Positions 35,274 to 52,259 of a DNA stretch of 64,000 bases are shown in pieces. The notes beneath the pieces were generated by a model. It worked only from the letters and a program-made list of their open reading frames with translations. It made no database searches and had not been told where the DNA came from. Numbering within the stretch: the first letter of the stretch is position 1; each line of letters begins with the position of its first letter. The stretch lies in NCBI RefSeq assembly GCF_965641715.1, contig NZ_OZ282453.1. The stretch is one strand, 5' to 3'. The stretch comes from Escherichia coli. GTDB lineage: Bacteria; Pseudomonadota; Gammaproteobacteria; Enterobacterales; Enterobacteriaceae. The translations under genes and the position numbers were made by a program.

Positions 35274-36017
35274 TTATTCTTGAGCGGAGCCAGAACTCAT
35301 CTCACTGAATGCAGCCATCCTGTAACCTTCCGGGGTGACCCCAAAATAACGCCTGAATACACTGATAAAATAAGATGTATTATTATAGCCACACTGCACA
35401 GCGATTCTGTTGATGGCACAGCTATATTGATGCAACAGCATTGCTGCCATTCTCATTCTCTCCGTAAGCAACAACTCACTGAAACATGTGCCTTCTTCTT
35501 TCAGTCTTTTTTTTAACAAACTTTCACTCATACATAACCGTGATGACACATCTCGCAGAGTCCAGTTTGCTGCAATGTCTGTATGAAACAACGCACCAAG
35601 CCTGCCGCTGATAGTACTGATACACGCGGTCATAAACGACGAAAACATTTTATCTGATGAAAAAAACGCCAGACACGAAAAGGAAAGCATTTCCGCTAAA
35701 TTGTCCGTATGAATCTTTTCCTCATAAAGATAATCAATCAGGATGCCCATCAATTCTGGCCTGGGAAAACTCATGCAAAGATATCGTGGCATTTTCCGGA
35801 CTAAAACAACATCCTGTTTTACCCCACTACGCAACAGGTAACGGCTAATTGTCGATTCACTGAGACTTATACGCCGAAAACATTCAGAAAAGGGCAATAA
35901 CGGTCCAGCCCCTCCCCTGACAAGAAGTGCACTACCACTTTCCAGAGAGAGTACTTTTCCTTCGAAGAGCACAACAAACGGGGAATGAACAAAAATAACA
36001 GAACAGGCCTCATTCAT
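35274..36017 (-). CDS. AraC-family transcriptional regulator (AppY/EnvY-like prophage moron)
   Basis: C-terminal AraC HTH (...NRIAVQCGYNNTSYFISVFRRYFGVTPEGY) resembling AppY; AT-rich; sits between Q and the lysis genes. Start may be 36077 or the internal Met at 36017. Confidence 0.8.
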   Translation of the reverse strand: MNEACSVIFVHSPFVVLFEGKVLSLESGSALLVRGGAGPLLPFSECFRRISLSESTISRYLLRSGVKQDVVLVRKMPRYLCMSFPRPELMGILIDYLYEEKIHTDNLAEMLSFSCLAFFSSDKMFSSFMTACISTISGRLGALFHTDIAANWTLRDVSSRLCMSESLLKKRLKEEGTCFSELLLTERMRMAAMLLHQYSCAINRIAVQCGYNNTSYFISVFRRYFGVTPEGYRMAAFSEMSSGSAQE

Positions 36018-36260
36018 ATCAATATCCCTGACATTACTGGTCGCAAGATAAGTATATATCACTTTACAAAAATGCAAGCCGTGAGCCCCGAATTCACAAC
36101 CACCAGCGCGTTTAACACCCTGTGCCGTTTTTCAGGCATAAAAAAACCCGCATAAAGCGGGCTCTTTCAGGTGTCCATGTCTGCTATTCGCCTCGCGATA
36201 CAGCTTTGCGAAGCGTACCAGAATTGAAGCAGTTTATTGGTAAAAATGCAATAACTTTTT

Positions 36261-37748: not shown

Positions 37749-37923
37749 TCATTCCCGAACGACCTTGAAACCGAGCCTTTCCAGGTATTCAATGAATGCC
37801 TCGATAGATAAAATCACATGATCATCAGGAATTAACGTTGCGTAGATAACATCCCCGTTCTCAACGCGCACAGCATAGAGGCTATTTTCACTAAAAATTT
37901 CACGCAATTCTTCGATTTTCATC
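37749..37923 (-). CDS. Hypothetical small protein (57 aa)
   Basis: ORF MKIEELREIFSENSLYAVRVENGDVIYATLIPDDHVILSIEAFIEYLERLGFKVVRE, not in the ORF track (under 60 aa); weak RBS. Confidence 0.3.
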
Positions 37924-38172
37924 AGCAGAATCCTTCTGGATAAATAACTTTCCCCTGTTTGGGGTCCATCCCTCTTCTCCCTGCGCGCTAACTAAGTAAT
38001 ATGATTCTATTTACCCCTAACGGCCCCTCAAGAACCACAACCAACGGAGTACACAAAAAGCTAATCAACTACGCTACGCAATAAAAAACCCGCCGAAGCG
38101 GGTTAAGTGCGGGTGCGTTGAGGATGCCTGACACATCAGAGGTGGCGAGGGATTTCTCCCCCGCCAGGTCTC

Positions 38173-38328
38173 TTACTCCTCAGGTTCGTAAGCTGTGAAG
38201 ACAGCGACCTCCGTCTGGCCGGTTCGGATTCGTACCTCGCAGAGGTCTTTCCTCGTTACCAGTGCCGTCACAATGACGGTTAAACAGATGACGATCAGGG
38301 CGATTAACATCGCCTTTTGCTGCTTCAT
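38173..38328 (-). CDS. hok: Hok-family type I toxin
   Basis: 51 aa MKQQKAMLIALIVICLTVIVTALVTRKDLCEVRIRTGQTEVAVFTAYEPEE matches the Hok/Gef family (HokD-like); RBS GGAGG upstream. Confidence 0.92.
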   Translation of the reverse strand: MKQQKAMLIALIVICLTVIVTALVTRKDLCEVRIRTGQTEVAVFTAYEPEE

Positions 38329-38385
38329 AGACTGCTCCTCCTTGCCTTTCGGCACGTAAGAGGCTAACCTATGTGTGTAGAGCAT
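38173..38385 (-). CDS. mok: Mok (overlapping reading frame that couples hok translation)
   Basis: 70 aa ORF MLYTHRLASYVPKGKEEQSMKQQ... extending upstream in the hok frame, as in hok/mok/sok loci. Confidence 0.6.
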   Translation of the reverse strand: MLYTHRLASYVPKGKEEQSMKQQKAMLIALIVICLTVIVTALVTRKDLCEVRIRTGQTEVAVFTAYEPEE

Positions 38386-38400
38386 AGATATGGCCTCAGA
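38330..38400 (+). ncRNA. sok: Predicted Sok-like antisense RNA region (boundaries not determined)
   Basis: Inferred from the hok/mok architecture only; not mapped by sequence. Confidence 0.3.
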
Positions 38401-38699
38401 TTAATGTTAAGCGTCTTGCAGGACGCGTAATGTTAACTGGGGCTTTTCTCTGTCTGCCTTACAGTGGCATGCCCGAGGCAGACAGCCTCAAGCACCCGCA
38501 GCTATTCTACTTAACTATCCTTTTCCCGCAAATCGTTTTATCCTCAACGCAAATTTCACCAATCCCCCCCCAACTCGTGTCCCTTACCCTCAGGCTGTTT
38601 CCCTCTTTACACAGAAGATAATTAATGTATTGTTTTTTACAAACAATCAGTTAAGAGCTATCTGTGGGTGGAGTCGCCTTGCGGTAGCTTTTCCTTTTA

Positions 38700-38750
38700 T
38701 GCATTGCACACATACATGCTCTAATATATTCCTATATATTCAAAAGGACT
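38700..38750 (+). promoter_or_regulatory. Putative promoter and RBS of the two-gene cassette
   Basis: AT-rich region with TTGCAC and TAATAT/TATATT hexamers (spacing not ideal) and AAGGA 7 nt upstream of ATG 38755. Confidence 0.3.
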
Positions 38751-38754
38751 TTTC

Positions 38755-39687
38755 ATGCACAGCGTTAACTTCTATTCATTCCGTGTGTTAACCCACAAGG
38801 GCAGCCGAACCAGCAAAAGACTAAACAACCTAGGTTTAGGCGATAAAAAAACAGCATATGAATTATTTGTTGAGTATTTTAATAACTATAAAAACACACC
38901 TATTGAATTTGGTCTCTCGAAAACAAAGGTTTCTCTTGAACAACACACATCACTCACCTTTGATGCTCAAAACCAAGTAATATATGGATATGTAAAGGTT
39001 GGAAAATATGGTGAGAGCAGTGAAATAAAAGACGATAAACTTACTAAAATACGTTATACAACAACTATCAACGATGTAACTCTCAAACAGCGTTACATTT
39101 TAATATTTTTGCCTGACAATTTAGAAGAAGGGATTATAGCATTTCACGCTAATGACAATATTTCTGCTCGCAGCACACTCTCTGATGCATTACTAGACCA
39201 CTTGAAGACAAAATATAAACTTGAAGCGAGAATCAATCCCCTTTGCCACAAAAAAATCCCCCAACACATCCTTGATTCAGAATTAAAACAAATAAAAGCC
39301 CAAGGTTACAAAGCACCAAAGGACATCACGGATGCATTCGGAAATAACAAAACAAACATCAAAACTGATTTGGTAATAAAATCAAATCAAGGCGTATTTG
39401 GTAGTTTTAAAGACTTAAAAGACAAAAAACTAGGAAATATAATAGAAATAATTGAAGATAAGTGTGACGCAATAAAAGTTAGTTTACAATTAGGCAATAG
39501 AACAGTCATTTTTAATTACGACACCATCTTAAGAAAAGGAATTTCTGCCGAATTAGATGATAACGACTTAAACATAAACGCATCTACAGGAATCCCCGAT
39601 CTTAAAGCACTTCATGACACTGTTAAAATCATTGCGAATGATATACTAAGTGAGTTACATAGTGGTAATGGGGGAGTAAAAATATGA
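38755..39687 (+). CDS. Hypothetical 310 aa soluble protein, first gene of an AT-rich two-gene cassette (candidate phage-defence or exclusion component)
   Basis: ORF MHSVNFYSFRVLTHKGSRTSKRLNNLGLGDKK...; Lys/Asn/Ile-rich; no TM helices; no motif I can assign; stop overlaps the start of the next gene (ATGA). Confidence 0.6.
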   Translation: MHSVNFYSFRVLTHKGSRTSKRLNNLGLGDKKTAYELFVEYFNNYKNTPIEFGLSKTKVSLEQHTSLTFDAQNQVIYGYVKVGKYGESSEIKDDKLTKIRYTTTINDVTLKQRYILIFLPDNLEEGIIAFHANDNISARSTLSDALLDHLKTKYKLEARINPLCHKKIPQHILDSELKQIKAQGYKAPKDITDAFGNNKTNIKTDLVIKSNQGVFGSFKDLKDKKLGNIIEIIEDKCDAIKVSLQLGNRTVIFNYDTILRKGISAELDDNDLNINASTGIPDLKALHDTVKIIANDILSELHSGNGGVKI

Positions 39688-40238
39688 ACAAGATTAACGT
39701 AATGAGTGTAATAAAAAAACATTACACAACAATGTCGGATCAACGCGGAAATATTTTACTCGAAGACATCGCAATACACTTCATCATTCCTCTTACATTA
39801 TCATTAATCATATGTTTTACCTATGGGATAATGAAAACCTCTATCGCATCTGTTTTTGTTAACTTTGGAGCAATTACTACCGCGCTGTTAATGAGCGCGG
39901 TTATTATGATCTACGATCAAAAACAAAAAACTGCATTTAAAATTTCAGACATTGAGGAAAACAACAAACCACGTTCAAATCTAATAATTTTAAATAATAA
40001 TAAAACCGTATATGAGCAATTATGTCACAATGTTTCTTATGCCATATTAACATCTGTAGCGTTAGTTATTTTTTCGGTTGCGATATATTTTCTCCCAGAA
40101 ACCCCAAGTGAATTAAAAAAATGGTATTTCGCAACCCCTGCTTACATAATCAGTTATTTAGCATACTCATCCTTCTTTTTTACCGTAGTAACATTCTTGA
40201 TGGTTATAAAAAGATTTAGCACAATATTAGATAGTTAA
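39684..40238 (+). CDS. Hypothetical 184 aa integral membrane protein (four predicted TM helices), second gene of the cassette
   Basis: Hydrophobic segments IAIHFIIPLTLSLIICFTYGI, IASVFVNFGAITTALLMSAVIMIY, VSYAILTSVALVIFSVAIYFL, YIISYLAYSSFFFTVVTFLMVI; translationally coupled to the upstream gene. Confidence 0.6.
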   Translation: MNKINVMSVIKKHYTTMSDQRGNILLEDIAIHFIIPLTLSLIICFTYGIMKTSIASVFVNFGAITTALLMSAVIMIYDQKQKTAFKISDIEENNKPRSNLIILNNNKTVYEQLCHNVSYAILTSVALVIFSVAIYFLPETPSELKKWYFATPAYIISYLAYSSFFFTVVTFLMVIKRFSTILDS

Positions 40239-40249
40239 ACAATGGAACC

Positions 40250-40280
40250 GCCGCCCTTTCGGGCGGCTTCCTGATTTTCT
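40250..40280 (+). terminator. Rho-independent terminator after the cassette
   Basis: Hairpin gccgccc-tttc-gggcggc followed by ttcctgatttt. Confidence 0.65.
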
Positions 40281-40335
40281 GAGGGTGCAGAAATCCCTCC
40301 TGTTAAGGATTAATTTTTAGCAGTGCTAAATTTAA

Positions 40336-51851: not shown

Positions 51852-52078
51852 GCGCAGCCATAAAGCTCACAGGAGAAAAACCAGTGCTATACACAAAAGT
51901 CAAACCATGTCCGTTTTGTGGTTGTCCATCAGTAACGGTGAAAGCCATTTCAGGATATTACCGCGCAAAGTGTAACGGATGCGAATCCCGAACTGGCTAT
52001 AGTGGAAGTGAAAAAGAAGCACTCGAAAGATGGAATAAACGAACTACTGGAAATAATAATGGAGGTGTTCATGTATAA
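51842..52078 (+). CDS. lar: Lar/RalR-like restriction alleviation protein
   Basis: Small protein with zinc-finger CPFCGC...CNGC; position between exo and xis as in Rac. Confidence 0.65.
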
Positions 52079-52259
52079 AATTACCGCCACTATTGAAAAG
52101 GAAGGTGGCACTCCTACTAAATGGACAAGATATTCAAAATCTAAACTAACGAAATCAGAATGCGAAAAAATGCGCTCAGGTAAAAAAGAAGCAGGCGTTT
52201 CCAGAGAGCAGAAAGTAAAACTGATAAATTTTAATTGCGAGAAACGTCAGTCCTCGTGA
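52059..52259 (+). CDS. YdaC-like small protein
   Basis: ORF 52002..52259 with probable internal start ([17 protein letters not shown]...); Rac gene order. Confidence 0.4.
   Translation: MEVFMYKITATIEKEGGTPTKWTRYSKSKLTKSECEKMRSGKKEAGVSREQKVKLINFNCEKRQSS

Follow-up and report, generated by a model that had tools for sequence, protein, structure and literature searches.

The element described here is a hok/mok/sok locus in a stretch of 64,000 nucleotides of Escherichia coli DNA (contig NZ_OZ282453.1 of assembly GCF_965641715.1), the whole of which is referred to as the window. Judged from its sequence, the locus very probably constitutes an intact type I toxin-antitoxin module, of hokD/hokW subtype, which occupies about 450 bp of a Rac-type prophage as a self-contained unit and is probably a functional copy. 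All of its coding parts are on the minus strand. As such the locus is already known: it is a complete member of a thoroughly known family, and the Prokaryotic Genome Annotation Pipeline (PGAP) names it hokD. The elements tac, ucb, sokT, dcb and fbi are defined according to the model for plasmid R1 (PMC9841398). Helix statistics refer to an alignment of 66 distinct homologous mRNAs, which are 95% identical. The locus comprises the following features, given from the 5' end of the hok transcript onwards and closing with those of the opposite strand.

38504..38531, minus strand: hok promoter with -35 hexamer TTGCGG (38531..38526), 16-nt spacer and -10 hexamer TAGAAT (38509..38504), assigned from sequence and conservation.
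38083..38497, minus strand: full-length hok mRNA of 415 nt; the 5' end (start G at 38497) corresponds to position 1 of Rfam model RF01794, the 3' end to the terminator.
38486..38497, minus strand: tac box GGGUGCUUGAGG at the mRNA 5' end, invariant in the 66 variants.
38439..38445, minus strand: ucb or anti-Shine-Dalgarno box AAGCCCC, predicted to pair with the mok Shine-Dalgarno (SD) sequence in the closed form or with tac in the open form.
38394..38397, minus strand: mok SD sequence GAGG, 8 nt before the mok AUG, read from the sequence and invariant in the 66 variants.
38367..38389, minus strand: sokT hairpin (AUCUAUG...CAUAGGU) from truncated and constrained folds, which holds the mok AUG and is the predicted target of the Sok 5' tail.
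38173..38385, minus strand: mok open reading frame (ORF) from the ORF list, 70 codons, AUG at 38385, frame and stop shared with hok.
38360..38364, minus strand: dcb box GCCUC, complementary to GAGGC at the mok SD.
38337..38343, minus strand: hok SD sequence AAGGAGG, 8 nt before the hok AUG, read from the sequence (AAGGAGA in 75 of 77 variants).
38173..38328, minus strand: hok coding sequence, 51 amino acids plus stop, MKQQKAMLIALIVICLTVIVTALVTRKDLCEVRIRTGQTEVAVFTAYEPEE, AUG at 38328 and UAA at 38175..38173, assigned by Pfam, PHROG and identity to K-12.
38139..38160, minus strand: stem-loop GGCGGGGGAGAAAUCCCUCGCC of the 3' untranslated region (UTR), helix 17 of the fold, 9 bp, 99.7% paired.
38111..38123, minus strand: fbi box CCUCAACGCACCC, which pairs with tac in the minimum free energy (MFE) fold.
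38083..38104, minus strand: intrinsic terminator AACCCGC-UUCG-GCGGGUU (38104..38087) with a U-run to 38083, found by terminator scan; homology among the loci stops exactly after it.
38342..38370, plus strand: predicted sok promoter with -35 hexamer TTGCCT (38342-38347), 17-nt spacer and -10 hexamer TAACCT (38365-38370), the same hexamers as in sokW.
38377..38447, plus strand: Sok antisense RNA of about 71 nt, mapped on sokW, with a 15-nt single-stranded 5' tail, a long hairpin (38392-38443) and a U-run.

The 51-amino-acid Hok toxin, which had been named in the original prediction, is confirmed by a match to the Pfam family HOK_GEF (PF01848; E = 3e-23, 81.6 bits with a cut-off of 22) and by 100% identity of the peptide to HokD/RelF of E. 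coli K-12. It also matches PHROG 251, 'MokW-like host killing' (3e-32), and shares 47 of its 51 residues with HokW of phage 933W, the four differing residues being C-terminal. An NCBIfam model of a Hok subfamily, which is tuned to other subtypes, gave 48.5 bits, under its cut-off of 73 bits. Among the 66 related loci the hok coding sequence shows a nucleotide diversity of only pi = 0.006 and is under strong constraint. No insertion sequence (IS) element, frameshift or stop codon was found in the hok/mok/sok locus.

An overlapping mok frame had also been predicted. The ORF is indeed present, yet its frame is the same as that of hok, making Mok an N-terminal extension of Hok with a shared stop codon. 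Mok is identical to MokW of 933W at 62 of 70 residues. In all 66 related loci the ORF that begins with the mok AUG extends to the hok AUG or beyond, and it does so in three forms that accompany the same Hok: 46 loci have the in-frame form of 70 codons, 15 have a form of 19 codons whose UGA overlaps the hok AUG, and the remaining five have a form of 68 codons in the +1 frame. Since the hok start is always reached, the three forms fit translational coupling, in which the passage of translation would matter rather than the Mok protein itself.

The full-length hok mRNA has an MFE of -175.4 kcal/mol (z = -7.9), and none of 100 shuffled sequences folded as well. In this fold a helix joins the first 12 nt of the mRNA to fbi near the 3' end, and the mok SD is sequestered by ucb (helix 4, 99.6% paired). 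The 12-bp tac-fbi helix is paired in 99.5% of the alignment cells; it is mostly invariant, and its support comes from conservation, not from covariation. For tac there are three predicted alternative partners, namely fbi, the sequence just downstream and ucb. The Rfam consensus and a fold of the 60-nt leader also show the tac-ucb pairing of the open form (7 bp, 99.6% paired); the 5-bp helix between the mok SD and dcb, likewise part of the open form, is 100% paired and invariant. When the 3' end is removed from fbi on, the MFE fold places tac on the adjacent downstream sequence, which corresponds to the 'metastable' hairpin of the R1 model. With tac-ucb constrained, the open form has -146.3 kcal/mol vs. 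-147.0 kcal/mol for the MFE fold, that is 0.7 above it. The constrained form has the published R1 architecture, with the tac-ucb stem, a hairpin complementary to the Sok hairpin, and the mokSD-dcb stem enclosing the sokT hairpin. Compensatory change occurs in the 5' hairpin, where an A-U/G-C exchange is seen among variants (this locus has the G-C form), and one pair of the 3' stem-loop occurs as G-U, A-U and G-C. Because the 66 variants are 95% identical, covariation tests are weak, and most helices are backed by conservation and few by compensatory change. The structured region downstream of hok, as noted in the original prediction, is real and consists of the 9-bp stem-loop, the fbi box and the intrinsic terminator. 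By analogy with the R1 model (PMC9841398), the stem-loop would be the expected hairpin protecting the 3' end of the processed mRNA.

On the opposite strand, the Sok gene is convergent with hok and overlaps the mok start. Its coordinates match the sokW feature of AF125520 base for base, and its promoter is predicted from identity to the sokW promoter region. The RNA folds with an energy of -28.7 to -30.5 kcal/mol (z = -4.4). A locus with no antisense promoter or no mRNA fold-back elements was, by a criterion set beforehand, to be taken as an inactive relic; both are present, and the locus is therefore not an obvious relic. With all hok/sok regulatory elements in place, the complete type I toxin-antitoxin architecture claimed for this part of the prophage is borne out.

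The extent of the locus had to be corrected. Instead of 38000-38420, an interval wrong at both ends, the conserved module runs from 38083 to about 38520-38531, as delimited in 76 related loci. Thus 83 nt (38000-38082) are outside the hok module, while the first 77 nt of the hok mRNA, the hok promoter and the 3' third of Sok (38421-38531) had been missed. The edges are sharp in the alignment of these 76 distinct versions: conservation drops at 38081-38082, right after the terminator, and again upstream of about 38520-38531, and the DNA beyond either edge is unrelated. Within the module, the -10 hexamer TAGAAT and the TTG of the -35 hexamer of the hok promoter are kept in nearly all of the 76 loci, and the sok promoter is more than 90% conserved. 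As is proper to prophage cargo, the module, which lies inside the prophage, is equipped with a promoter and a terminator of its own, and its surroundings vary from one related phage to another.

Automatic annotation gives an incomplete picture of such loci. The Rfam model RF01794 ('sok') matches 38497..38323 on the minus strand over its entire length (model positions 1-157 of 157; 113 bits with a gathering score of 59, E = 7e-25). We rejected this hit as the antitoxin gene. The consensus starts with GGGUGCUUGAGG at the 5' end of the hok mRNA and ends at the hok AUG, so that the model detects the hok-sense leader and not the antisense RNA. Annotation derived from RF01794 consequently puts 'sok' on the wrong strand, with 175 nt instead of about 71 nt. 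PGAP marks only the 51-amino-acid coding sequence; mok and Sok are missed, so that complete and truncated loci are not told apart. Two sub-threshold Rfam matches concern the hok 3' UTR. One, to isrK, a small RNA (sRNA) of the Salmonella Gifsy-1 prophage, covers 38083-38164 on the minus strand (30.5 bits vs. 50; E = 1.4e-4 in a local search) and spans the 3' stem-loop, fbi and the terminator, which might hint that IsrK is derived from a hok 3' UTR. The other is to rsmX.

The closest validated homologue is hokW-mokW-sokW of the Stx2 phage 933W and the Sakai prophage Sp5, with about 91% DNA identity over 38101-38554 and mok likewise in frame. Both loci are on lambdoid prophages, and sokW has the same -35 and -10 hexamers and the same hairpin as the Sok gene described here. 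In contrast, about 8 of the first 20 positions differ in the 5' tail/sokT region, so that cross-neutralisation between the two is uncertain. The 933W locus (L001, 1501-1572) is without the intrinsic terminator hairpin, its homology stopping right after fbi, whereas the window (38083-38110) and most relatives have the terminator. HokW is toxic and is neutralised by sokW transcribed from its own promoter (PMC8621323); mutation of the sokW -10 hexamer abolished antitoxin activity and unmasked HokW toxicity (Takada et al. 2021, PMC8621323). After RecA-dependent induction of Sp5, Sok is lost and HokW appears, and deletion of hokW-sokW halves the phage yield (PMC8621323).

The relation to hokD (relF) of the K-12 Qin prophage is of another kind. 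The Hok peptides are 100% identical, conservation extends over the 3' UTR, fbi and the terminator, and both loci are followed by a rem-like gene and then the Q region. However, homology to K-12 hokD stops at 38342; upstream of this point K-12 has relB-relE in place of tac, ucb, the mok start, sokT and sok. K-12 hokD is therefore a truncated version of the complete locus found in the window. The Rac-type prophage carries the whole ancestral form, of which hokD is what remains in K-12, here with its regulatory elements mapped.

In the prototype, the hok/mok/sok (parB) locus of plasmid R1, the frames of mok and hok differ, and the locus is on a plasmid and not on a prophage. The same elements nevertheless follow in the same order in R1 and in the window (tac, ucb, mok SD, sokT, dcb, hok, 3' stem-loop, fbi). 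Both loci have a convergent antisense gene and the same predicted alternative pairings, and the leader in the window matches RF01794. R1 Hok is about 43% identical to the Hok described here, a figure which agrees with the 44% reported for HokW vs. R1 Hok (PMC8621323). Killing by Hok, neutralisation by Sok, cleavage of the duplex by RNase III and activation by 3' processing are known from work on HokW/sokW, which is 92% identical (PMC8621323), and on R1 (PMC9841398).

From this anatomy and the R1 and hokW data we infer with high confidence that the locus would work as an RNA switch. The weak hok promoter would yield a stable 415-nt hok mRNA, which would be silent as long as its 5' tac is paired with the 3' fbi and ucb covers the mok ribosome-binding site. 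Slow 3' trimming would take off fbi, whereupon tac would pair with ucb, leaving the sokT hairpin and the mok SD accessible. As long as sok is transcribed, its unstable RNA of 71 nt would bind sokT and the duplex would be destroyed. Once sok transcription is off, ribosomes would translate mok and then hok; since mok is in frame with hok, ribosomes on mok would also read hok. The 51-amino-acid Hok would finally insert into the inner membrane and collapse it.

What the switch would serve is less clear than how it would operate. We prefer, if tentatively, a role in prophage induction, whereby the module fires when the prophage is induced and speeds membrane damage and phage release, by analogy with hokW-sokW in Sp5. 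The hok gene is co-directional with the operon on the cro/ydaS side. After induction, sense transcription reading through from the early-right operon would escape control by the 5' tac and meet the convergent sok promoter head-on. The induction role shares its trigger logic with abortive infection and with killing upon prophage loss. In abortive infection or exclusion, a superinfecting lytic phage would stop host transcription, the supply of Sok would end and the lysogen would die. PHROGs files Hok under morons, and R1 hok/sok has been reported, in a study cited in PMC8621323, to lower the plating efficiency and plaque size of T4. The slot upstream of hok is moreover a variable cargo site, which holds Kiwa in the viral locus L074 and, in the window, a protein with a RexA-like predicted fold together with a protein of four transmembrane helices (described below). 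Yet the R1 effect, as far as it is related in PMC8621323, was modest and needed a high-copy plasmid, and hokW-sokW helped phage release (PMC8621323); adjacency to defence genes is circumstantial, the neighbouring pair being present at only one of 80 loci with this Hok. Exclusion is thus a somewhat unlikely role. More unlikely still is prophage addiction, in which cells that lose the prophage would keep the stable hok mRNA, lose Sok and die, so that the element is stabilised. It would correspond to the classical role of R1 hok/sok in post-segregational killing (PMC9841398), and the module is a discrete mosaic unit in many prophages, phage-plasmids and plasmids. On the other hand, deletion of hokW-sokW left growth of the Sp5 lysogen unchanged, and prophage stability is not among the results of Takada et al. 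(PMC8621323).

Several observations weigh against an intact locus that works and serves in this way. A simple scan for the sigma-70 consensus reported neither the hok nor the sok promoter, since the hexamers are weak: the sok -10 matches at only three of six positions, and the hok -35 is below threshold. The hok initiation region bears two rare substitutions (38337 A>G and 38331 G>U), which are shared with only one of 76 related variants (IMG/VR contig L043) and swap the conserved predicted helix UAGCCU/AGGCUA for CCUCUU/AGGAGG (-13.1 vs. -16.1 kcal/mol in local folds). The unconstrained fold of the 3'-truncated mRNA shows no tac-ucb stem and prefers the metastable 5' hairpin. As to the proposed role, hokW is located near the right end of 933W, whereas this hok is in the early-right operon, so that the idea of read-through cannot be transferred from 933W. 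Most chromosomal hok loci of K-12 are reportedly inactive, and the present locus might be a relic of the same kind, complete in appearance yet silenced or decayed. The partial survival of hokD in K-12, the two substitutions in the hok ribosome-binding region and the deviation of both promoters from consensus would fit this explanation. Opposed to it, every element is the same, or nearly the same, as in the validated hokW-sokW, the regulatory helices are all kept among the 66 variants, the coding sequence is uninterrupted and as little diverse as stated above, and a weak hok promoter together with a non-consensus sok -10 is the norm in the family. We regard a relic as very improbable, and induction remains the role that we prefer.

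The two substitutions have further consequences for the sequence. The 38337 A>G change makes the hok SD a perfect AAGGAGG, with which CCUCUU at 38363..38358 pairs in the local fold. The sigma-70 scan gave two other sites, one on the minus strand at 38410..38381, within the leader, and one on the plus strand at 38304-38333 (TTAACA, 18 nt, TAGACT). The latter exists because the change at 38331 turns TAGCCT, present in 75 of 77 variants, into TAGACT. It is located 37 nt upstream of the normal Sok start and could be the source of a longer antisense RNA.

Related DNA is widespread. Similar sequences occur in 4726 of 5426 complete E. coli genomes, with a median of two and a maximum of 10 places per genome, and in 102 phage records (933W, VT2-Sakai, Stx phages), in phage-plasmids and in many plasmids; at least 80 IMG/VR viral contigs code for the identical Hok peptide. 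Among the 66 loci with identical Hok, variation is concentrated in the 27 columns over sokT and the Sok 5' tail (38367-38391 of the window, alignment columns 107-133), where pi = 0.297 and 18 alleles are found. Despite being the most variable segment, the sokT hairpin is still paired in 87% of cells. It is conceivable, though doubtful, that this hypervariability reflects diversifying selection for mutually orthogonal antitoxin specificities, such that co-resident prophages would be unable to neutralise each other's Hok. In that case every prophage would have a kill switch of its own for use in induction or exclusion, and the one described here would be paired with the sequence-orphan, RexAB-type membrane effector that adjoins it in a defence hotspot.

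The prophage itself is placed by matches in the window to MicC (6.7 kb), RalA (52 kb), FnrS (56.5 kb) and McaS (63.5 kb), whose positions indicate the Rac attachment region; MicC, FnrS and McaS are on either side of the prophage. A region of PEC41, 97.6% identical, carries in window orientation recE, kilR and the repressor on the plus strand. On its minus strand follow, in order, a cro-like gene, ydaT, a replication gene, ydaV, DUF1627, small genes, hokD, DUF1367, DUF1364/YbcO, DUF1133 (Q-like), an AraC regulator, tRNA-Gly, holins, endolysin and terminase. Pfam matches on the window ORFs agree with this gene order. The original prediction had put hok between the early and nin regions, and it is indeed found between the replication genes and the DUF1367/YbcO/Q block.

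Upstream of hok, the prophage carries two further genes of interest, likewise noted before as an adjoining cassette:

38755..40238, plus strand: cassette of a 310-amino-acid soluble protein (38755-39687) and a 184-amino-acid four-helix membrane protein (39684-40238), not part of the toxin-antitoxin module.

The cassette does adjoin hok inside the prophage. It is transcribed divergently from hok, its genes overlap by 4 nt, and it is AT-rich, with a GC content of 32.8% vs. 50% for the window. Among 5426 E. coli genomes, 57 carry the cassette. Both proteins belong to small families restricted to Enterobacterales, all members of which are annotated as 'hypothetical'. Searches of the cassette in Pfam, PADLOC and NCBIfam gave no match, a sequence-profile search of the PDB gave nothing, and a literature search on the cassette accessions and PHROG ids found nothing. 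The pair is kept at 36-46% identity, including the 4-nt overlap, on a Yersinia plasmid-like contig and in a Serratia prophage, in the latter within the same slot between replication and DUF1367 genes, and in both cases without hok. As the cassette is also present on only one of 80 viral contigs with identical Hok, hok and cassette are independent mosaic units. Of the 'small accessory island' that the two had been proposed to form, the position is as claimed and the reading was reasonable, but the two parts are separate units.

The 310-amino-acid protein has a RexA/RdgC-like predicted fold, and the 184-amino-acid protein is predicted as a membrane bundle of four hydrophobic helices (model with a predicted local distance difference test score, pLDDT, of 87.5). 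The cassette is possibly a RexAB-type exclusion pair, a candidate to which we give somewhat less than even credence. There is no sequence similarity to lambda RexA/RexB (nothing in Pfam even at E <= 10; hhalign probability below 1%). The 184-amino-acid protein in particular had no Pfam hit to RexB (PF15968), with an hhalign probability of 0.6%, and no significant or informative fold match in BFVD. In contrast to lambda RexA-RexB and the RexAB-type system of the Pseudomonas putida prophage P1, the cassette lies away from the repressor gene. Kiwa was considered as well and rejected: PADLOC gave no KwaA or KwaB hit at E <= 0.1, hhalign with KwaB of L074 gave 0.1%, and the gene order is the reverse of that in Kiwa.

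The slot between the upstream 132-amino-acid gene and hok (38532-40335) has at least 12 different contents among 25 viral loci sharing that gene; loci with a variable slot include L006, L043, L051, L061, L062, L074, L076 and L077. In L074 the slot holds bona fide Kiwa (KwaB 1.5e-159, KwaA 1.1e-58). In L006 it contains an unannotated three-gene AT-rich set. The term accessory island is therefore better replaced by that of a hotspot of variable cargo, with the hok module as its fixed border. While the hok locus itself matters little, a cassette in a slot that elsewhere holds Kiwa is the more useful lead and a testable candidate phage-exclusion system.

Some minor features of the prophage may be added. 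The RalA match (205 bits, 52077-52255, minus strand) concerns the antitoxin sRNA of the RalR/RalA type I system; the same prophage thus carries a second type I toxin-antitoxin locus. Downstream of hok, an ORF of 57 amino acids (37749-37922, minus strand) is homologous to the N-terminal part of Rem of K-12 Qin (PHROG 340) and looks truncated in comparison with the 83-amino-acid K-12 protein; the synteny of hok and rem is common to the window and Qin. A promoter-like sequence, TTGAGG-16-TAGAAT, is located at 38031..38004 within the region 37855-38082. Finally, a gene for an AraC-family regulator and a tRNA (tRNA-Gly in PEC41) are found at 34785-36077 on the minus strand, between the Q-like gene and the holins, and this site is another cargo position in the same prophage.

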